From NCBI RefSeq assembly GCF_056712565.1, contig NZ_CM160072.1: a DNA stretch of 64,000 bases, one strand, 5' to 3'. Each line of letters opens with the position of its first letter. The stretch's first letter is position 1. The notes beneath the pieces were generated by a model. The model was not told the origin of the DNA, did not search any database, and saw only the letters and a program-made list of their open reading frames with translations. Both the position numbers and the translations under genes were made by a program. Positions 1,606 through 23,464 of this stretch are shown here, in pieces.

Positions 1606-4266
1606 ATGAGTCAGCGAGGACTGGAAGCACTACTGCGACCAAAATCGATTGCGGTAATTGGCGCATCGATGAAACCCAATCGCGCAGGTTACCTGATGAT
1701 GCGTAACCTGCTGGCGGGAGGCTTTAACGGACCGGTACTCCCGGTGACGCCAGCCTGGAAAGCGGTGTTGGGTGTGTTGGCCTGGCCGGATATTGCCCGC
1801 TTGCCCTTTACACCCGACCTTGCGGTTTTATGTACCAATGCCAGCCGTAATCTTGCTCTTCTGGAAGAGCTCGGCGAGAAAGGCTGTAAAACCTGCATTA
1901 TTCTTTCCGCCCCGGCATCGCAACACGAAGATCTCCGCGCCTGCGCCCTGCGCCATAACATGCGCCTGCTAGGACCAAACAGTCTGGGCTTACTGGCTCC
2001 CTGGCAAGGTCTGAATGCCAGCTTTTCACCTGTGCCGATTAAACGCGGCAAGCTGGCGTTTATTTCGCAATCGGCTGCTGTCTCCAACACCATCCTCGAC
2101 TGGGCGCAACAGCGTGAGATGGGCTTTTCCTACTTTATTGCGCTCGGCGACAGCCTGGATATCGACGTTGATGAATTGCTCGACTATTTGGCGCGCGACA
2201 GTAAAACCAGCGCCATCCTGCTCTATCTCGAACAATTAAGTGATGCGCGACGTTTTGTTTCGGCGGCCCGTAGCGCCTCACGTAATAAACCGATTCTGGT
2301 GATTAAAAGCGGACGTAGCCCGGCGGCTCAACGTCTGTTGAACACCACGGCAGGAATGGATCCGGCGTGGGATGCAGCTATTCAGCGTGCCGGTTTGTTG
2401 CGGGTACAGGACACCCACGAACTGTTTTCGGCGGTGGAAACCCTTAGCCATATGCGCCCGCTGCGTGGCGACCGGTTGATGATTATCAGCAACGGTGCTG
2501 CGCCTGCCGCGCTGGCGCTGGATGCCTTATGGTCACGCAATGGCAAGCTGGCAACGCTAAGCGAAGAAACCTGCCAGAAACTGCGCGATGCACTGCCAGG
2601 GCATGTGGCAATCTCTAACCCGCTCGATCTGCGCGATGACGCCAGCAGCGAGCATTATGTCAAAACGCTGGACATTCTGCTCCACAGCCAGGATTTTGAT
2701 GCGCTGATGGTTATTCATTCGCCCAGCGCCGCTGCTCCCGCAACAGAAAGCGCGCAAGTATTAATTGAAGCGGTAAAGCATCATCCCCGCAGCAAATATG
2801 TCTCTTTGCTGACGAACTGGTGCGGCGAGCACTCCTCGCAAGAGGCACGACGTTTATTCAGCGAAGCCGGGCTGCCGACCTACCGTACTCCGGAAGGAAC
2901 CATCACTGCTTTTATGCATATGGTCGAGTACCGGCGTAATCAGAAGCAACTACGCGAAACGCCGGCGTTGCCCAGCAATCTGACTTCCAATACCGCAGAA
3001 GCGCATCTTCTGTTGCAACATGCGATTGCCGAAGGGGCTACGTCGCTCGATACCCATGAAGTTCAGCCCATCCTGCAAGCGTATGGTATGAATACTCTCC
3101 CTACCTGGATTGCCAGTAATAGCACCGAAGCGGTACATATTGCCAAACAGATTGGCTATCCGGTGGCACTGAAATTGCGCTCGCCGGATATTCCACATAA
3201 ATCGGAAGTTCAGGGCGTCATGCTCTACCTACGTACAGCCAATGAAGTCCAGCAAGCGGCAAACGCTATTTTCGATCGCGTAAAAATGGCCTGGCCGCAG
3301 GCGCGGGTCCACGGCCTGTTGGTGCAAAGTATGGCTAACCGTGCTGGCGCTCAGGAGTTGCGGGTTGTGGTTGAGCACGATCCGGTTTTCGGGCCGTTAA
3401 TCATGCTGGGTGAAGGCGGTGTGGAGTGGCGTCCTGAAGATCAAGCCGTCGTCGCACTGCCGCCGCTGAACATGAACCTGGCCCGCTATCTGGTTATTCA
3501 GGGGATCAAAAGTAAAAAGATTCGTGCACGCAGTGCGCTACGCCCATTGGATGTTGCAGGCTTGAGCCAGCTTCTGGTGCAGGTTTCCAACTTGATTGTC
3601 GATTGCCCGGAAATTCAGCGTCTGGATATTCATCCTTTGCTGGCTTCTGGCAGTGAATTTACCGCGCTGGATGTCACGCTGGATATCGCGCCGTTTGAAG
3701 GTGATAACGAGAGCCGGCTGGCTGTGCGCCCTTATCCGCATCAGCTGGAAGAATGGGTAGAATTGAAAAACGGTGAACGCTGCTTGTTCCGCCCGATTTT
3801 GCCAGAAGATGAGCCACAGCTTCAGCAATTCATTTCGCGAGTCACCAAAGAAGATCTTTATTACCGCTACTTTAGCGAGATCAACGAATTTACCCATGAA
3901 GATTTAGCCAACATGACGCAGATCGACTACGATCGGGAAATGGCATTTGTAGCGGTACGACGAATTGATCAAACGGAAGAGATCCTCGGCGTCACACGTG
4001 CGATCTCCGACCCTGATAACATCGATGCCGAATTTGCCGTGCTGGTTCGCTCGGATCTCAAAGGGTTAGGCTTAGGTCGACGCTTAATGGAAAAGTTGAT
4101 TACCTATACGCGAGATCACGGACTACAACGTCTGAATGGTATTACGATGCCAAACAATCGTGGCATGGTGGCGCTGGCCCGCAAGCTCGGGTTTAACGTT
4201 GATATCCAGCTCGAAGAGGGGATCGTTGGGCTTACGCTAAATCTTGCCCAGCGCGAGGAATCATGA
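1606..4266 (+). CDS. patZ: protein lysine acetyltransferase (NDP-forming acyl-CoA synthetase-like + GNAT)
   Basis: 886 aa ORF; CoA-binding N-terminus, C-terminal GNAT-like region; synteny trxC-yfiP-yfiQ-pssA. Confidence 0.9.
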   Translation: MSQRGLEALLRPKSIAVIGASMKPNRAGYLMMRNLLAGGFNGPVLPVTPAWKAVLGVLAWPDIARLPFTPDLAVLCTNASRNLALLEELGEKGCKTCIILSAPASQHEDLRACALRHNMRLLGPNSLGLLAPWQGLNASFSPVPIKRGKLAFISQSAAVSNTILDWAQQREMGFSYFIALGDSLDIDVDELLDYLARDSKTSAILLYLEQLSDARRFVSAARSASRNKPILVIKSGRSPAAQRLLNTTAGMDPAWDAAIQRAGLLRVQDTHELFSAVETLSHMRPLRGDRLMIISNGAAPAALALDALWSRNGKLATLSEETCQKLRDALPGHVAISNPLDLRDDASSEHYVKTLDILLHSQDFDALMVIHSPSAAAPATESAQVLIEAVKHHPRSKYVSLLTNWCGEHSSQEARRLFSEAGLPTYRTPEGTITAFMHMVEYRRNQKQLRETPALPSNLTSNTAEAHLLLQHAIAEGATSLDTHEVQPILQAYGMNTLPTWIASNSTEAVHIAKQIGYPVALKLRSPDIPHKSEVQGVMLYLRTANEVQQAANAIFDRVKMAWPQARVHGLLVQSMANRAGAQELRVVVEHDPVFGPLIMLGEGGVEWRPEDQAVVALPPLNMNLARYLVIQGIKSKKIRARSALRPLDVAGLSQLLVQVSNLIVDCPEIQRLDIHPLLASGSEFTALDVTLDIAPFEGDNESRLAVRPYPHQLEEWVELKNGERCLFRPILPEDEPQLQQFISRVTKEDLYYRYFSEINEFTHEDLANMTQIDYDREMAFVAVRRIDQTEEILGVTRAISDPDNIDAEFAVLVRSDLKGLGLGRRLMEKLITYTRDHGLQRLNGITMPNNRGMVALARKLGFNVDIQLEEGIVGLTLNLAQREES

Positions 4267-4379: not shown

Positions 4380-5735
4380 ATGTTGTCAAAATTTAAGCGT
4401 AATAAACATCAACAACACCTTGCCCAACTACCCAAGATTTCTCAATCAGTTGATGATGTCGATTTCTTTTACGCTCCCGCCGACTTCCGGGAGACGCTGC
4501 TGGAAAAAATAGCCAGCGCGAAGCAGCGCATTTGCATTGTCGCCCTGTATCTCGAACAGGATGACGGTGGCAAAGGCATTCTGAACGCGTTGTATGAGGC
4601 TAAAAGGCAGCGTCCGGAACTGGATGTGCGGGTGCTGGTCGACTGGCATCGTGCACAACGTGGACGCATTGGCGCTGCGGCATCTAACACTAACGCTGAC
4701 TGGTACTGCCGCATGGCGCAGGAAAATCCGGGCGTAGATGTTCCGGTTTATGGCGTTCCAATCAATACCCGTGAAGCCCTTGGTGTTCTGCACTTTAAAG
4801 GCTTTATCATCGACGATAGCGTACTTTATAGCGGTGCCAGCCTGAACGATGTTTACCTGCATCAGCACGATAAATATCGCTACGACCGTTATCATCTGAT
4901 CCGTAACCGTAAGATGTCAGACATTATGTTTGAATGGGTTACACAGAATATTATGAATGGCCGCGGCGTTAATCGTCTGGATGATGTTAATCGGCCAAAA
5001 AGCCCGGAAATCAAGAACGATATTCGTCTGTTCCGCCAGGAGCTGCGTGATGCCGCTTATCATTTCCAGGGCGATGCCGACAACGATCAGCTTTCCGTAA
5101 CGCCGCTAGTGGGGCTGGGGAAATCGAGTCTGTTGAACAAGACCATTTTCCATCTTATGCCTTGTGCCGAGCAGAAACTAACCATCTGTACGCCATACTT
5201 CAACCTGCCAGCAATCCTTGTGCGCAATATTATCCAGTTGCTGCGCGAAGGGAAAAAGGTCGAAATTATTGTTGGTGATAAAACCGCGAATGACTTCTAC
5301 ATTCCGGAAGATGAACCTTTCAAGATAATTGGCGCATTGCCTTATCTCTATGAGATCAATCTGCGTCGTTTCCTGAGCCGTTTGCAGTATTACGTCAATA
5401 CTGACCAGCTAGTGGTTCGGTTATGGAAAGATGACGACAACACCTATCACCTGAAAGGGATGTGGGTTGATGATAAGTGGATGTTGATCACCGGTAATAA
5501 CCTGAACCCACGCGCCTGGCGTCTGGATCTGGAAAACGCCATTTTGATCCACGATCCACAACTGGAGCTTGCGCCGCAGCGAGAGAAAGAACTGGAGCTG
5601 ATCCGCGAGCATACCACCATCGTTAAGCACTATCGCGATCTGCAAAGTATTGCCGATTATCCGGTGAAGGTTCGTAAACTCATCCGCCGTTTGCGCCGTA
5701 TCCGCATCGACCGATTAATTAGCCGCATCCTGTAA
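4380..5735 (+). CDS. pssA: CDP-diacylglycerol--serine O-phosphatidyltransferase
   Basis: 451 aa from MLSKFKRNK...; two PLD-like HxK motifs (LHFKGFIIDD, YHLKGMWVDD). Confidence 0.95.
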   Translation: MLSKFKRNKHQQHLAQLPKISQSVDDVDFFYAPADFRETLLEKIASAKQRICIVALYLEQDDGGKGILNALYEAKRQRPELDVRVLVDWHRAQRGRIGAAASNTNADWYCRMAQENPGVDVPVYGVPINTREALGVLHFKGFIIDDSVLYSGASLNDVYLHQHDKYRYDRYHLIRNRKMSDIMFEWVTQNIMNGRGVNRLDDVNRPKSPEIKNDIRLFRQELRDAAYHFQGDADNDQLSVTPLVGLGKSSLLNKTIFHLMPCAEQKLTICTPYFNLPAILVRNIIQLLREGKKVEIIVGDKTANDFYIPEDEPFKIIGALPYLYEINLRRFLSRLQYYVNTDQLVVRLWKDDDNTYHLKGMWVDDKWMLITGNNLNPRAWRLDLENAILIHDPQLELAPQREKELELIREHTTIVKHYRDLQSIADYPVKVRKLIRRLRRIRIDRLISRIL

Positions 5736-7399: not shown

Positions 7400-7741
7400 G
7401 CCATTATGTCTCCTGCCGTAATCCGATGCTTTTGTCGGTCGCTTTTGTTTATTTTTTGGTAAGAAAAATGTTATACATTTGTTGCATATCATTATGCAAC
7501 CTTAACCATGAATTTAGTTAGCAGGAAAATGGTTATTAAGGAGCTTAAGGATAGATTTCTGGTAAGGAGGAAGTATGGAAGTGGGCAATTTGGGGAAGAC
7601 GTATTCGCTGTTGAATCTGGCTTATGTGGGAGCGTAGATACTGTTACGGCCAGCAAGTTTTTTCCTGGTCCAGTCTCCCGGATTGCAGGCATGCCAGACA
7701 CAGCGCCGTCAGGCGCTGTTGTTTCATCCCTTCCGCGATTT

Positions 7742-9674
<1,933 letters not shown>

Positions 9675-9778
9675 ATCAGCATACTTGTCCTTAGCCTTCT
9701 GCAGTGACAGCTGGTAGTACAGCGTGCTTCTGGCCAGCCCTGCGGCCTTTAACAGGTCAGACTGGCAGTGTCCGTACC

Positions 9779-10308
9779 TCAGGCTCTGGATGACTTTCGT
9801 TTTTTCTCCAGCTCCTGGCGCTTTTTTTCCAGAAGATGCTCCTGCATGGCTTTCAGATATGCATTTTCTGCGCGAAGATAACGCAGCTCATTCTTCATCT
9901 CTTCCGGCGTCATGTTTGCCTCGTTTTCATGGGTATCATCAGAACGGGTCATGCTTTTCTCCTTCCTGCGCCTGATAAAGGCCTCATTACCAGATTTGCG
10001 GTAGCCTTTTATCCAGTTTTTAACCGTGTTGTGGCTGGGAATGTTAAACCGGGCAGCTACCCGGGGTAGAGACTCAGAATGCCCGAGAGCATAAAGAACC
10101 ACGCAAAGTTTATCTTCAGGAGAATAGCTACGCTTGTGTCTGCAATCCAGTGCCGAGGACCGTGAAGAAGAAAAAGATTAATCCAGTGTGAGAGGCTGGT
10201 GTGAGAAAGTTGAAAGAGTTTTGCCGTAGAAATGATGCCTGCATGACCAGCCAGGTAATGATTTACAGCGGCAAGTTTTATTTCAAATGAATGTTTCATA
10301 AACTGCAC
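9779..10308 (-). pseudogene. IS3-family OrfA (two HTH modules) apparently frameshifted
   Basis: First HTH (MKHSFEIKLAAVNHYLAGHAGIISTAKLFQLSHTSLSHWINLF) in frame of 10057..10308; second part (VVLYALGHSESLPRVAARFNIPSHNTVKNWIKGYRKSG) in frame of 9779..10102. Confidence 0.5.
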
Positions 10309-10386
10309 CTTCAGATGTCAGATTATGTCCAACATTTGGGGTGCAGTTCAGCAGCGTCGCATCCGGCATTTATTCCGCACCAACGC

Positions 10387-10427: not shown

Positions 10428-10547
10428 ATGCCTGGCAGTTCCCTACTCTCGCATGGGGAGACCCCACACTACCATCGGCGCTACGGCGTTTCACTTCTGA
10501 GTTCGGCATGGGGTCAGGTGGGACCACCGCGCTAAGGCCGCCAGGCA
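10428..10547 (-). rRNA. rrfG: 5S ribosomal RNA
   Basis: Reverse complement matches E. coli 5S (TGCCTGGCGGCC...CTGCCAGGCAT), 120 nt. Confidence 0.95.
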
Positions 10548-10640
10548 AATTCTGTTTCATTAACCCGCTTGTCGCCGGTTAATCTAATCTGTATCAGGCT
10601 GAAAATCTTCTCTCATCCGCCAAAACATCTTCGGCGTTGT

Positions 10641-13544
<2,904 letters not shown>

Positions 13545-13737
13545 TCACAACCCGAAGATGTTTCTTGCGATTCATCATCGTGTTGCGAAAATTTGAGAGA
13601 CTCACGAACAACTCTCGTTGTTCAGTGTTTCAATTTTCAGCTTGATCCAGATTTTTAAAGAGCAAATATCTCAAACATCACCCGAAGATGAGTTTTGAGA
13701 TATTAAGGCAGGTGACTTTCACTCACAAACCAGCAAG

Positions 13738-13813
13738 TGGCGTCCCCTAGGGGATTCGAACCCCTGTTACCGCCGTGAAAGGGCGGTGTCCTGGGCCTCT
13801 AGACGAAGGGGAC
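13738..13813 (-). tRNA. gltW: tRNA-Glu (spacer tRNA)
   Basis: Reverse complement GTCCCCTTCGTCTAGAGGCCCAGGACACCGCCCTTTCACGGCGGTAACAGGGGTTCGAATCCCCTAGGGGACGCCA. Confidence 0.95.
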
Positions 13814-13898
13814 GTATCAGTCTGCTTCGCAAGACGCCTTGCTTTTCACTTTCTATCAGACAATCTGTGTGAGCACTGCAAAGTACGCTTCTTTAAGG

Positions 13899-15440
<1,542 letters not shown>

Positions 15441-15881: not shown

Positions 15882-18455
15882 TTACTGGACGGCGACGATC
15901 CGGTCTTCATTAACTTCCAGGCGAATAACTTTACCCGGAACCAATTCACCAGACAGTATTTGCTGTGCCAGCGGGTTTTCGATCTGCTGCTGGATAGCAC
16001 GCTTCAGAGGACGTGCACCATAGACCGGATCGTAACCGTTCTCGCTCAGCAGTTTCAGCACCTCGTCAGAAATGTGGATTTCATAACCACGTTCTTCCAG
16101 ACGTTTGTACAGACGTTTCAACTGAATCTGCGCAATCGACGCAATGTGTTGTTCACCCAGCGGATGGAAGACGACGACTTCATCGATACGGTTAATGAAT
16201 TCCGGACGGAAGTTATGGCTTACCACACCGAGCACCAGCTCTTTCATGTGCGCATAATCCAGTTCACCAAAACGTTCCTGAATCAGATCAGAACCGAGGT
16301 TAGAGGTCATAATGACGACCGTATTACGGAAGTCGACCGTTCTCCCCTGCCCGTCAGTCAGACGCCCATCATCCAGTACCTGCAACAGAATGTTGAAGAC
16401 ATCCGGATGCGCTTTTTCCACTTCATCCAGCAGGATGACGGAATACGGACGACGACGCACCGCTTCGGTCAGATAGCCACCTTCTTCATAACCAACATAT
16501 CCCGGAGGCGCACCAACCAGACGAGACACCGAGTGTTTCTCCATAAACTCGGACATATCAATACGGACCATCGCCTCGTCGCTATCAAACATAAAGTTCG
16601 CCAGCGCCTTACAAAGCTCTGTTTTCCCCACACCCGTTGGGCCGAGGAACAGGAATGAACCAATCGGGCGATTTGGATCCGCCAGCCCCGCACGGCTACG
16701 ACGAATAGCGTTAGATACCGCATCAACCGCTTCGTTCTGACCAATAACGCGATGATGCAGTTCTTGCTCCATACGCAGCAGTTTTTCGCGCTCGCTTTCC
16801 ATCATGCGAGAAACCGGAATTCCCGTCCAACGCGCCAGCACTTCAGCAATTTCGGCATCGGTCACTTTATTACGCAACAGACGCATAGTTTTGCCTTCGA
16901 GCTGCGTTGCGGCTTCCAGTTGCTTTTCCAGTTCCGGGATTTTGCCGTATTGCAGTTCAGACATCCGCGCCAGGTCACCCACACGGCGAGCCTGTTCAAT
17001 AGCGATTTTCGCCTGTTCCAGTTCCGCTTTAATGGTCTGCGTACCAGAAAGCGAGGCTTTCTCTGCTTTCCACTCTTCTTCTAACTCGGAGTACTGACGT
17101 TCTTTGTCGCTCAGTTCTTCGTTGAGCATATCCAGGCGTTTTTTACTGGCTTCATCAGACTCTTTCATTAACGCCTGTTGTTCCAGTTTGAGCTGGATGA
17201 TACGACGATCGAGTCGGTCGAGTTCTTCTGGTTTTGAGTCAATCTGCATACGAATGCTGGATGCTGCTTCATCGATCAGGTCGATGGCTTTATCCGGCAG
17301 CTGACGGTCAGCAATGTAGCGATGAGACAACGTCGCCGCTGCAACAATTGCCGGGTCAGTAATTTGCACATGGTGGTGCAGCTCGTAACGTTCTTTCAGG
17401 CCACGCAGAATCGCAATGGTATCTTCAACAGAAGGCTCGGCAACAAACACTTTCTGGAAACGACGTTCCAGCGCAGCATCTTTTTCGATGTACTGGCGAT
17501 ATTCGTCAAGCGTCGTGGCACCTACGCAGTGCAATTCACCACGCGCCAGCGCCGGTTTCAGCATGTTTCCGGCGTCCATTGCGCCATCGGCTTTACCCGC
17601 GCCGACCATGGTATGTAATTCGTCGATAAACAGGATGACGTTGCCTTCCTGTTTGGCAAGATCGTTAAGTACGCCTTTTAAACGTTCTTCAAACTCACCG
17701 CGATATTTCGCCCCAGCCACCAGCGCGCCCATATCCAGCGCCAGTACGCGGCGGCCTTTCAACCCTTCGGGCACTTCGCCGTTGATAATACGCTGCGCCA
17801 GACCTTCAACGATGGCAGTCTTACCGACGCCTGGTTCACCAATCAGTACCGGGTTATTTTTAGTACGACGTTGCAGCACCTGAATGGTACGGCGAATTTC
17901 TTCATCACGACCAATCACCGGATCGAGTTTACCCTGTTCGGCTCGTTCGGTAAGGTCGATGGTATATTTTTTCAAAGCCTGACGTTGGTCTTCAGCACCT
18001 TGATCGTTCACGCTTTCACCTCCACGCATTTGTTCAATCGCTTGAGTAATGTTGGCGGTGGTCGCCCCTGCTGCTTTCAGGATGTCGGCCAGCGTGCCGC
18101 GAGACTCAAGTGCCGCCAGAACGAACAGTTCTGACGAGATAAAGTTATCACCACGTTTTTGCGCCAGCTTGTCGCAAAGATTAAGAACGCGCACCAGATC
18201 CTGTGATGGCTGGACATCACCACCAGTACCTTCAACCTGCGGTAAACGATTTAATGCCTGATTGATATCTGTGCGCAACTGGCCAGCATTTATGCCAGCG
18301 GATGTTAATAAAGGACTAACCGAACCCCCTTCCTGATTCAGCAGGGCGCTCATTAAATGAAGTGGTTCGATGAATTGGTTGTCGTGCCCGAGTGCAAGTG
18401 ATTGGGCATCGGCAAGAGCAAGCTGGAATTTATTAGTAAGACGATCCAGACGCAT
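15882..18455 (-). CDS. clpB: ClpB disaggregase (AAA+ chaperone)
   Basis: ORF 15882..18467; start trimmed to [11 protein letters not shown]...; two Walker A motifs ([16 protein letters not shown]). Confidence 0.95.
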
Positions 18456-18489
18456 AACTCCTCCCATAACGGATCAAAGTTGCTACTGG

Positions 18490-18525
18490 AGATTAAATGA
18501 GGTCATCCCTCAATTATTCAAGGTT
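18490..18525 (-). promoter_or_regulatory. candidate sigma-32 heat-shock promoter of clpB
   Basis: Minus-strand CTTGAA ... CCTCATTTA upstream of clpB. Confidence 0.45.
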
Positions 18526-18584
18526 ATTGACCAGATTAATGTGAAAAGAAAATCACGCGTACCGGATCGTCTTGATTCTTTAGG

Positions 18585-20427: not shown

Positions 20428-21165
20428 ATGACGCGCATGAAATATCTGGTGGCAGCCGCCACACTAAGCCTGTTTTTGGCGGGTTGCTCGGGGTCAAAGG
20501 AAGAAGTACCTGATAATCCGCCAAATGAAATTTACGCGACTGCACAACAAAAGCTGCAGGACGGTAACTGGAGACAGGCAATAACGCAACTGGAAGCGTT
20601 AGATAATCGCTATCCGTTTGGTCCGTATTCGCAGCAGGTGCAGCTGGATCTCATCTACGCCTACTATAAAAACGCCGATTTGCCGTTAGCACAGGCTGCC
20701 ATCGATCGTTTTATTCGCCTTAACCCGACCCATCCGAATATCGATTATGTCATGTACATGCGTGGCCTGACCAATATGGCGCTGGATGACAGTGCGCTGC
20801 AAGGGTTCTTTGGCGTTGACCGTAGCGATCGCGATCCTCAACATGCACGAGCTGCGTTTAGTGACTTTTCCAAACTGGTGCGCGGCTATCCGAACAGTCA
20901 GTACACCACCGATGCCACCAAACGTCTGGTATTCCTGAAAGATCGTCTGGCGAAATATGAATACTCCGTTGCCGAGTATTATACAGAACGTGGTGCATGG
21001 GTTGCTGTCGTTAACCGCGTAGAAGGCATGTTGCGCGACTATCCGGATACCCAGGCTACGCGTGATGCGCTGCCGCTGATGGAAAATGCATACCGTCAGA
21101 TGCAGATGAATGCGCAAGCTGAAAAAGTAGCGAAAATCATCGCCGCAAACAGCAGCAATACATAA
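20428..21165 (+). CDS. bamD: outer-membrane assembly lipoprotein BamD
   Basis: 245 aa; lipobox LFLAGC; TPR-like repeats. Confidence 0.95.
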
Positions 21166-21201
21166 CAGAAACCTGAAACACAAAACGGCAGCCTTGAGCT
21201 G

Positions 21202-22627
21202 TAATGCCGATCAGTTAAGGATCAGTTGACCGATCCAGTGGCTGTGTAAGAATCCGGAAACGCTCACTTGTTTCCGGATTTTTTTATGCACATTGGACAG
21301 GCTCTTGATCTGGTATCCCGTTACGATTCTCTGCGTAACCCACTGACTTCTCTGGGGGATTACCTCGACCCCGAACTCATCTCTCGTTGCCTTGCCGAAT
21401 CAGGTACTGTAACGCTACGCAAGCGCCGTCTTCCCCTCGAAATGATGGTCTGGTGTATTGTTGGCATGGCGCTTGAGCGTAAAGAACCTCTTCACCAGAT
21501 TGTGAATCGCCTGGACATCATGCTGCCGGGCAATCGCCCCTTCGTTGCCCCCAGTGCCGTTATTCAGGCCCGCCAGCGCCTGGGAAGTGAGGCTGTCCGC
21601 CGCGTGTTCACGAAAACAGCGCAGCTCTGGCATAACGCCACGCCGCATCCGCACTGGTGCGGCCTGACCCTGCTGGCCATCGATGGTGTGTTCTGGCGCA
21701 CACCGGATACACCAGAGAACGATGCAGCCTTCCCCCGCCAGACACATGCCGGGAACCCGGCGCTCTACCCGCAGGTCAAAATGGTCTGCCAGATGGAACT
21801 GACCAGCCATCTGCTGACGGCTGCAGCCTTCGGCACGATGAAGAACAGCGAAAATGAGCTTGCTGAGCAACTTATAGAACAAACCGGCGATAACACTCTG
21901 ACGTTAATGGATAAAGGTTATTACTCACTGGGACTGTTAAATGCCTGGAGCCTGGCGGGAGAACACCGCCACTGGATGATACCTCTCAGAAAGGGAGCGC
22001 AATATGAAGAGATCAGAAAACTGGGTAAAGGCGATCATCTGGTGAAGCTGAAAACCAGCCCGCAGGCACGAAAAAAGTGGCCGGGACTGGGAAATGAAGT
22101 GACTGCCCGCCTGCTGACCGTGACGCGCAAAGGAAAAGTCTGCCATCTGCTGACGTCGATGACGGACGCCATGCGCTTCCCCGGAGGAGAAATGGGGGAT
22201 CTGTACAGTCATCGCTGGGAAATCGAACTGGGATACAGGGAGATAAAACAGACGATGCAACGGAGCAGGCTGACGCTGAGAAGTAAAAAGCCGGAGCTTG
22301 TGGAGCAAGAGCTGTGGGGTGTCTTACTGGCTTATAATCTGGTGAGATATCAGATGATTAAAATGGCGGAACATCTGAAAGGTTACTGGCCGAATCAACT
22401 GAGTTTCTCAGAATCATGCGGAATGGTGATGAGAATGCTGATAACATTGCAGGGCGCTTCACCGGGACGTATACCGGAGCTGATGCGCGATCTTGCAAGT
22501 ATGGGACAACTTGTGAAATTACCGACAAGAAGGGAAAGGGCCTTCCCGAGAGTGGTAAAGGAGAGGCCCTGGAAATACCCCACAGCCCCGAAAAAGAGCC
22601 AGTCAGTTGCTTAACTGACTGGCATTA
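21202..22627 (+). mobile_element. IS4 insertion sequence (1426 bp) with 13-bp target-site duplication
   Basis: Terminal inverted repeats TAATGCCGATCAGTTAAG / CTTAACTGACTGGCATTA; direct repeat CAGCCTTGAGCTG at 21189-21201 and 22628-22640; inserted inside the hairpin AAAACGGCAGC...GCTGCCGTTTT. Confidence 0.9.
21286..22614 (+). CDS. insG: IS4 transposase
   Basis: ORF 21268..22614; start placed at [16 protein letters not shown]... (442 aa). Confidence 0.85.
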
Positions 22628-22819
22628 CAGCCTTGAGCTGCCGTTTTTTTATTCTGTTAGTTGTGAAACTGAAGCGATTTAGTCACTATCGATCTCATCA
22701 AATATGGCTCGCTTTGAGATATTCCTCAAGTAAAAAAACACCTCTTCCTGCGATTTCTCACAAAAAAGATTCGTTGACAAAAAGTGACAAAATTATGAGA
22801 TTTCCATCACACATTTTGA

Positions 22820-23215
<396 letters not shown>

Positions 23216-23318
23216 TCCTTTATATTGAGTGTATCGCCAACGCGCCTTCGGGCGCGTTTTTTGTTGACAGCGTGAAAACAGTACGGGTACTGTACTAAAG
23301 TCACTTAAGGAAACAAAC

Positions 23319-23366
23319 ATGAAACACACACCGTTTTTCTTCGCATTCTTTTTTACCTTCCCCTGA
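23319..23366 (+). CDS. pheL: pheA leader peptide
   Basis: 15-codon ORF MKH(T)PFFFAFFFTFP with seven Phe codons immediately upstream of the attenuator. Confidence 0.9.
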   Translation: MKHTPFFFAFFFTFP

Positions 23367-23413
23367 ATGGGAGGCGTTTCGTCGTGTGAAACAGAATGCG
23401 AAGACGAACAATA

Positions 23414-23442
23414 AGGCCTCCCAAATCGGGGGGCCTTTTTTA
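23414..23442 (+). terminator. pheA attenuator terminator
   Basis: AGGCCTCCC-AAATC-GGGGGGCCT hairpin followed by TTTTTTATT. Confidence 0.85.
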
Positions 23443-23464
23443 TTGATAACAAAAAGGCAACACT

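Follow-up and report, generated by a model that had tools for sequence, protein, structure and literature searches.

IS1397, ISKpn1, IS621 and ISRm22 insert into REP elements (PMC1525189). In these elements, as in IS4, a short extragenic palindrome directs target choice and insertion recurs at equivalent positions, but the targets of IS4 are single-copy terminator-like hairpins with A and T tracts rather than REP repeats, and its duplications of 11-14 bp span the hairpin loop. The published range of IS4 target duplications is 11-13 bp, about one helical turn. Mayaux and colleagues (Gene, 1984) reportedly found IS4 inserted at the pheS,T attenuator, in its terminator, and proposed AAA-N20-TTT as its target consensus. 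In IS10 and IS50, a transposase-proximal structure forms only in transcripts that come from outside the element, and limits its activation by neighbouring genes.

Here we describe an IS4 copy in a 64,000-nucleotide stretch of Escherichia coli DNA (NCBI RefSeq assembly GCF_056712565.1, contig NZ_CM160072.1), the whole of which is referred to below as the window. A reading of this sequence alone had placed the element in the bamD terminator hairpin upstream of raiA, and the 1426-bp length of the element, an exact 13-bp duplication and a matching empty site all confirm that placement. We consider it very probable that this is a simple and recent transposition of canonical IS4 into the bamD Rho-independent terminator, that target choice sets its location, and that the consequences are small. 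The insertion reported at pheS,T likewise lies in an intrinsic-terminator hairpin between A and T runs, although the gene is a different one, and the bamD insertion is a polymorphism of natural populations, not a mutation obtained in the laboratory.

IS4 between bamD and raiA

The element in the window is a canonical IS4 (IS4 family, IS4 subgroup). It is identical at 1425/1426 nt to the annotated IS4 of K-12 MG1655, while several further E. coli genomes contain 100% identical copies annotated as IS4. The terminal inverted repeats of the window copy are imperfect, 18 bp long, start with TAATGCC and agree at 16/18 positions, and its single ORF encodes a DDE transposase, InsG, that matches the Pfam domains Nterm_IS4 (3.1e-33) and DDE_Tnp_1 (2.8e-31); the RefSeq annotation starts this gene at an upstream TTG at 21268. 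The K-12 copy (insG, NC_000913.3 4502090-4503515) has the same 1426 bp length and the same inverted repeats, and its InsG also counts 442 aa, with one substitution relative to the transposase of the window (I386M). It is likewise bordered by AAA and TTT arms and has a 12-bp duplication, but occupies a different chromosomal site with a poor hairpin (-4.7 kcal/mol), as against the perfect terminator palindrome at bamD.

Table 1. Features of the bamD-raiA region, in window coordinates; the last row refers to the sequences of the two loci named there.
Feature	Position	Strand	Basis
bamD CDS, 245 aa, stop codon 21163-21165	20428-21165	+	ORF; Pfam YfiO 5.8e-88; bamD annotation in matching genomes
Left outer stem half AAAACGG, equal to the left target arm	21182-21188	+	sequence; IS4 target-arm consensus
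Left 13-bp target-site duplication CAGCCTTGAGCTG (inner stem and loop of the predicted terminator)	21189-21201	+	
IS4, complete, 1426 bp, transposase co-directional with bamD and raiA	21202-22627	+	
IS4 left terminal inverted repeat TAATGCCGATCAGTTAAG(G)	21202-21219	+	end-to-end alignment
Candidate transposase promoter TTGACC-16-AAGAAT with TG extension	21226-21253	+	consensus match only
IS4-internal hairpin, arms 21248-21261 / 21270-21283, T7 to 21285	21248-21285	+	inverted-repeat search and folding
IS4 transposase gene InsG, 442 aa from ATG	21286-22614	+	ORF and Pfam
11-bp hairpin overlapping the right inverted repeat	22598-22623	.	inverted-repeat and terminator scans, folding
IS4 right terminal inverted repeat, reverse complement TAATGCCAGTCAGTTAAG	22610-22627	+	end-to-end alignment
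Right 13-bp target-site duplication CAGCCTTGAGCTG	22628-22640	+	
Right outer half of the predicted terminator, CCG + T7, equal to the right target arm	22641-22650	+	
Putative raiA promoter: CRP-like TGAGATTTCCATCACA 22796-22811, -10-like TATGCT 22832-22837	22796-22837	+	read from sequence
raiA CDS, 113 aa	22874-23215	+	ORF; Pfam Ribosomal_S30AE 7.5e-23
IS4 junctions at the bamD site in L001/L002, 14-bp duplication	locus ~1937-1951 and 3377-3390		

The 13-bp duplication claimed by the sequence-only reading is exact: the two copies of CAGCCTTGAGCTG are identical, abut both ends of IS4 and form the sole exact 13-mer pair in the region, the probability of finding an exact 13-mer at both ends by chance being about 4^-13. 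The palindrome arms flanking the element are AAAACGGCAGC (21182-21192) and GCTGCCGTTTT (22637-22647). The element thus stands within the palindrome, as had been claimed, although the start coordinate given for it was off by 1 nt, since the left arm starts at 21182. The description of a terminator split into two halves holds for the T-run and the outer part of the stem (AAAACGG / CCGTTTT), which are indeed separated; the innermost 4 bp of the stem, together with the loop, are instead present at both junctions through the duplication.

When IS4 and one repeat are taken out, the window reads ...ACACAAAACGGCAGCCTTGAGCTGCCGTTTTTTTATT..., and the resulting 400-bp reconstruction is 100% identical to B2-type strains, for example ATCC 11775 and Nissle 1917; this empty site is found at >=80% coverage in 5009 of the 5426 complete E. 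coli genomes. Over a longer span, the window without IS4 and one duplication copy is identical at 5001/5001 positions to the empty site of E. coli O2:K1:H7 APEC E18055, a strain in which the neighbouring prophage is 100% identical to that of the window and the bamD-raiA spacer is empty. Because of this perfect match, the insertion is a simple and evolutionarily recent one with no accompanying change.

The restored site, AAAACGGCAGC-CTTGA-GCTGCCGTTTTTTT, begins 17 nt 3' of the bamD stop codon and forms an 11-bp stem (AAAACGGCAGC/GCUGCCGUUUU) with 7 G-C pairs and a 5-nt loop, followed by U7, with a fold of -17.7 kcal/mol (z -5.3 relative to shuffles). By sequence this is a textbook Rho-independent terminator, and termination at this point is predicted. 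The palindrome had been taken for the bamD terminator of strains that lack the element, and it does stand 17 nt past the stop in the 5009 genomes with the empty site, among them the isogenic O2:K1:H7 strain and K-12; a comparison with the K-12 bamD-raiA spacer, which had been proposed as a check, finds the same hairpin there with a loop of 6 nt. Should the palindrome instead be a REP-like element or a protein-binding site, and a target of IS4 for that reason, the case would resemble that of the other IS families that target REP palindromes (PMC1525189), and no experimental 3' end of the bamD transcript was retrieved, either as an entry in the one Term-seq supplement searched or as a paper in the literature search. 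We nevertheless regard that explanation as extremely improbable. The hairpin is present in a single copy, follows a stop codon by 17 nt and has an 11-bp stem, a loop of 5-6 nt and T7; Rfam shows no known RNA family in IS4 or between bamD and raiA; and many other IS4 sites likewise consist of a hairpin and a T-run, located at the 3' ends of various unrelated genes.

Target preference and recurrence

Copies of IS4 were collected from public assemblies by exact transposase sequence, and 21 distinct empty sites were reconstructed from them. Over these 21 sites the target reads AAA-N3, a duplication of 11-14 bp, then N3-TTTTT, and the duplication measures 11 bp at one site, 12 bp at nine, 13 bp at seven and 14 bp at four. 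Upstream of the duplication, A is found at position -6 in 21/21 sites, at -5 in 20/21 and at -4 in 15/21; positions -3 to -1 and +1 to +3 are mostly G or C, and T occupies positions +4 to +8 in 18-19 of the 21. The bamD site (AAAACGG, 13 bp, CCGTTTTTTT) fits this consensus perfectly, and the consensus itself (AAA-N17-20-TTT) agrees with the one reportedly proposed by Mayaux and colleagues. Perfect hairpins made of an A-tract, a GC stem, a loop and a T-tract, with folds of -16 to -20 kcal/mol, are found at about 13-14 of the 21 sites, where they lie beside gene ends. The genes called next to IS4 sites encode an adhE-like dehydrogenase and thymidine kinase, enolase, sigma-70, a DegS-like protease and malate dehydrogenase, BipA, SSB and YjcB, and an RraA-like protein.

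A second site, in a TonB-dependent receptor gene, also carries IS4 in both orientations in different genomes (L006, L011, L036). It lies inside the coding sequence (Plug/TonB_dep_Rec) and reads AAAAAACGCA, 12 bp, ACGTTTTT; the target rule of IS4 therefore extends to DNA that is not a terminator. Duplications of 14 bp, one more than in the published range, occur at the bamD site of other strains (see below) and at three further IS4 sites (L022, L025, L031). The spacing of the tracts varies, but the cuts always lie 3 nt inside them; duplication length therefore appears to follow target geometry.

We propose that IS4 inserts where an A-tract and a T-tract stand about 17-20 bp apart, as is typical of a bidirectional intrinsic terminator, and cuts 3 nt inside each tract, so duplicating the 11-14 bp between the cuts. 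The location at the bamD terminator is then accounted for by the fit between this preference and the arrangement of A-tract and T-tract in a terminator. A general statement on target-arm specificity stands in PMC2266710, and De Palmenaer et al. count as literature in favour of target choice as the explanation.

The insertion is not the singular event that it had been taken for. IS4 stands at the bamD-raiA junction in the orientation of the window in 336 of the 5426 complete genomes of E. coli (300-bp left-junction probe, full coverage required), and is inverted at the identical junction in another 70, including CE10, IAI39 and an O25:H4 strain (synthetic junction probe, full coverage, with 100% identity in the best matches listed). 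These counts, together with the fitting target preference, make the bamD terminator a species-wide hotspot for IS4. This one site holds about 406 of the 5496 matches to IS4 found in complete genomes and is thus occupied in about 7.5% of E. coli genomes.

A 70-bp junction probe separates the same-orientation genomes into about 27 that belong to the 13-bp class of the window and about 309 whose duplication is one base longer. In the longer class (L001 and L002, from strain 2452 and an O121 strain), both duplication copies at the bamD site read CAGCCCTTGAGCTG, and the 14 bp match the K-12-type allele of the empty site with its 6-nt loop. The two classes are best regarded as independent insertions, because an identical indel in both copies is implausible. 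Strain AR_0077 falls in the same 13-bp class as the window, with an IS4 that differs at 7 nt and a backbone that is about 98.5% identical, and IS4 alleles vary among the occupied bamD sites. Judged from these sequences, the bamD site was hit independently at least three times, and probably more. Clonal inheritance or selection could account in part for the 336:70 orientation ratio and for the high frequency.

A recurrence of this extent could also be put down to positive selection for a change in the expression of bamD or raiA rather than to target preference: the site was filled independently three or more times, is occupied in about 7.5% of the complete E. coli genomes and takes in about 406 of 5496 IS4 matches. 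We find this adaptive explanation very improbable. The same architecture of A-tract, N3, duplication, N3 and T-tract is found at 20 other, unrelated IS4 sites, so that target preference is enough to account for the location; moreover, both orientations occur at bamD, and near relatives differ in occupancy while being otherwise unchanged.

The arrangement bamD, IS4, raiA is already annotated in hundreds of RefSeq genomes, and the kind of event is known, while in the literature searched we found nothing specific on IS4 at bamD/raiA (yfiO/yfiA). What the locus adds for specialists of insertion sequences is small, namely the hotspot statistics, the 14-bp duplication and the idea of terminator replacement discussed below. 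It is a clean natural example of the preference of IS4 for terminator-shaped targets, and, as it comes with an empty site in an isogenic strain, the element in either orientation and two loop alleles (giving 13- and 14-bp duplications), it could serve to study the way a DDE transposase gauges its target. The IS4 site between bamD and raiA is also a possible marker for strain typing.

Predicted fate of bamD and raiA transcription

At the left junction the native hairpin is lost and no U-run follows (fold -9 kcal/mol, z -0.2). The claim that the insertion could change the termination of bamD transcripts therefore stands as far as the destruction of the native terminator is concerned, but not in its further implication, since IS4 carries a hairpin with U7 that is predicted to stop these transcripts. 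This internal hairpin (AAGAAUCCGGAAAC-GCUCACUU-GUUUCCGGAUUUUU, 21248-21283), with a 14-bp stem, lies 47 nt inside the left end of IS4, and its U7 directly abuts the transposase ATG. It folds at -23.5 kcal/mol (z -5.8) and is retained in a 131-nt fold of the whole junction. A simple terminator scan did not list it, because the maximal stem absorbs part of the T-run, and the hairpin was folded directly instead. It probably serves as a substitute terminator, and bamD transcripts in strains bearing IS4 would be expected to end about 85 nt later instead of reading on, because the hairpin is strong and U7 follows it. Folding argues against another possibility that we considered, bulged terminators rebuilt by pairing of the IS4 termini TAATGCCG and CTGGCATTA with the outer stem halves: the left junction yields the -9 kcal/mol and z of -0.2 given above, and at the right junction the hairpin of the right repeat prevails.

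The same structure is predicted to act as an insulator that would shield the transposase gene from transcription arriving from outside. Transcription from the candidate promoter at 21226-21253 would start at about the 3' end of the left arm of the hairpin, so that only transcripts from outside would form it. That promoter candidate is weak, with three sites of its type found against 2.7 expected by chance. The hairpin would thus be placed for read-through protection of the kind known from IS10 and IS50, but it looks like a complete terminator, with hairpin and U7, whereas the structure of IS10 and IS50 only sequesters the start codon.

The hairpin that overlaps the right inverted repeat is followed on the minus strand by TCTTTTT, which makes it terminator-like (11 pairs) for transcripts coming from the right, while on the plus strand it lacks a U-run. 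In a synthetic junction with the element inverted, it folds stably right after the bamD-side flank, and IS4 is predicted to offer an inward-facing terminator-like structure in either orientation. These features invite a more far-reaching idea, which we put forward tentatively and with more doubt than conviction: IS4 would seek out terminators and supply a replacement for each one it destroys, combining separate recognition of two arms with terminator-like hairpins at both ends. It may cut 3 nt inside each A/T arm whatever their spacing, so that the hairpin, and not a fixed stagger, sets the length of the duplication, and the upstream gene may regain a terminator within about 25-85 nt in either orientation. 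If true, terminator replacement would explain the tolerance of IS4 behind bamD, an essential gene, in about 7.5% of E. coli genomes. The locus could also test whether terminators borne by insertion sequences buffer the cost of such insertions.

On the plus strand, the right junction holds a 4-bp remnant mini-hairpin, 3 nt before U7. Because only this remnant stands in the way, with no good plus-strand terminator in between, read-through from the transposase gene towards raiA appears structurally possible, though weak. The region upstream of raiA is unaltered by the insertion from 22641 on, and the putative raiA promoter, more than 165 bp downstream of the insertion, is unchanged. Its CRP-like half-palindrome TGAGA-N6-TCACA (22796-22811) has its centre some 41 nt ahead of the start implied by TATGCT, an arrangement which suggests that the raiA promoter is class II CRP-dependent.

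It might be supposed that the split terminator lets transcription from bamD, from the transposase gene or from both enter raiA, and measurably changes the expression of this gene (ribosome hibernation). The loss of hairpin and U-run at the left junction, the lack of a good plus-strand terminator from the transposase stop (22614) to raiA and the common direction of IS4, bamD and raiA are in keeping with this supposition. We judge it unlikely all the same, since the internal hairpin and its U7 (-23.5 kcal/mol) separate bamD from the transposase gene and should halt read-through from bamD, the sole candidate for a transposase promoter is a weak consensus match, and the putative raiA promoter is downstream and unchanged. 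In addition, the site is filled in the opposite orientation in 70 genomes, and the persistence of the insertion therefore needs no orientation-specific effect. The regulatory part of the sequence-only reading was thus partly right, but overstated.

We favour, then, a simple transposition guided by target choice, with a nearly neutral predicted effect on bamD and raiA. The native terminator would be lost at the left junction and bamD transcripts would stop about 85 nt further on at the IS4 hairpin and U7, which would also keep outside transcription from the transposase gene; the putative raiA promoter stays as it was, and weak transposase read-through towards raiA would be possible. Little effect on the neighbouring genes is to be expected because IS4 brings its own terminator-like hairpin. 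The practical importance of the insertion is small, as it is already in RefSeq and leaves the neighbouring genes and the putative raiA promoter unchanged.

Other features of the window

A P2-family prophage of about 31 kb lies between yfiB and rplS (window ~29918-61265), with genes annotated under the match as integrase, portal, terminase ATPase, P2-family major capsid protein and replication endonuclease. It is missing from AR_0077 and 100% identical in O2:K1:H7 APEC E18055 and SF-468, and a probe for it was covered at >=80% in only 37 of the 5426 genomes. Colinearity of the window with AR_0077 was considered and ruled out, the backbone being about 98.5% identical and interrupted by two large insertions.

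About 2.7 kb of further DNA relative to AR_0077 separates kgtP from the 5S gene of the rRNA operon (window ~7632-10351). It contains an IS3-family element, with orfA at 9779-10102 (HTH_28) and orfB at 8952-9674 (rve), and a split IS110-family transposase at 8304-8708 (DEDD_Tnp_IS110) with a second fragment at 8056-8388, and looks like nested or decayed insertion sequences. Three RNA features are those expected for the region: the rRNA operon on the minus strand with tRNA-Glu in its spacer (10430-15440), the RyfD sRNA between clpB and yfiH (18436-18574), and the Phe leader upstream of pheA (23318-23443).
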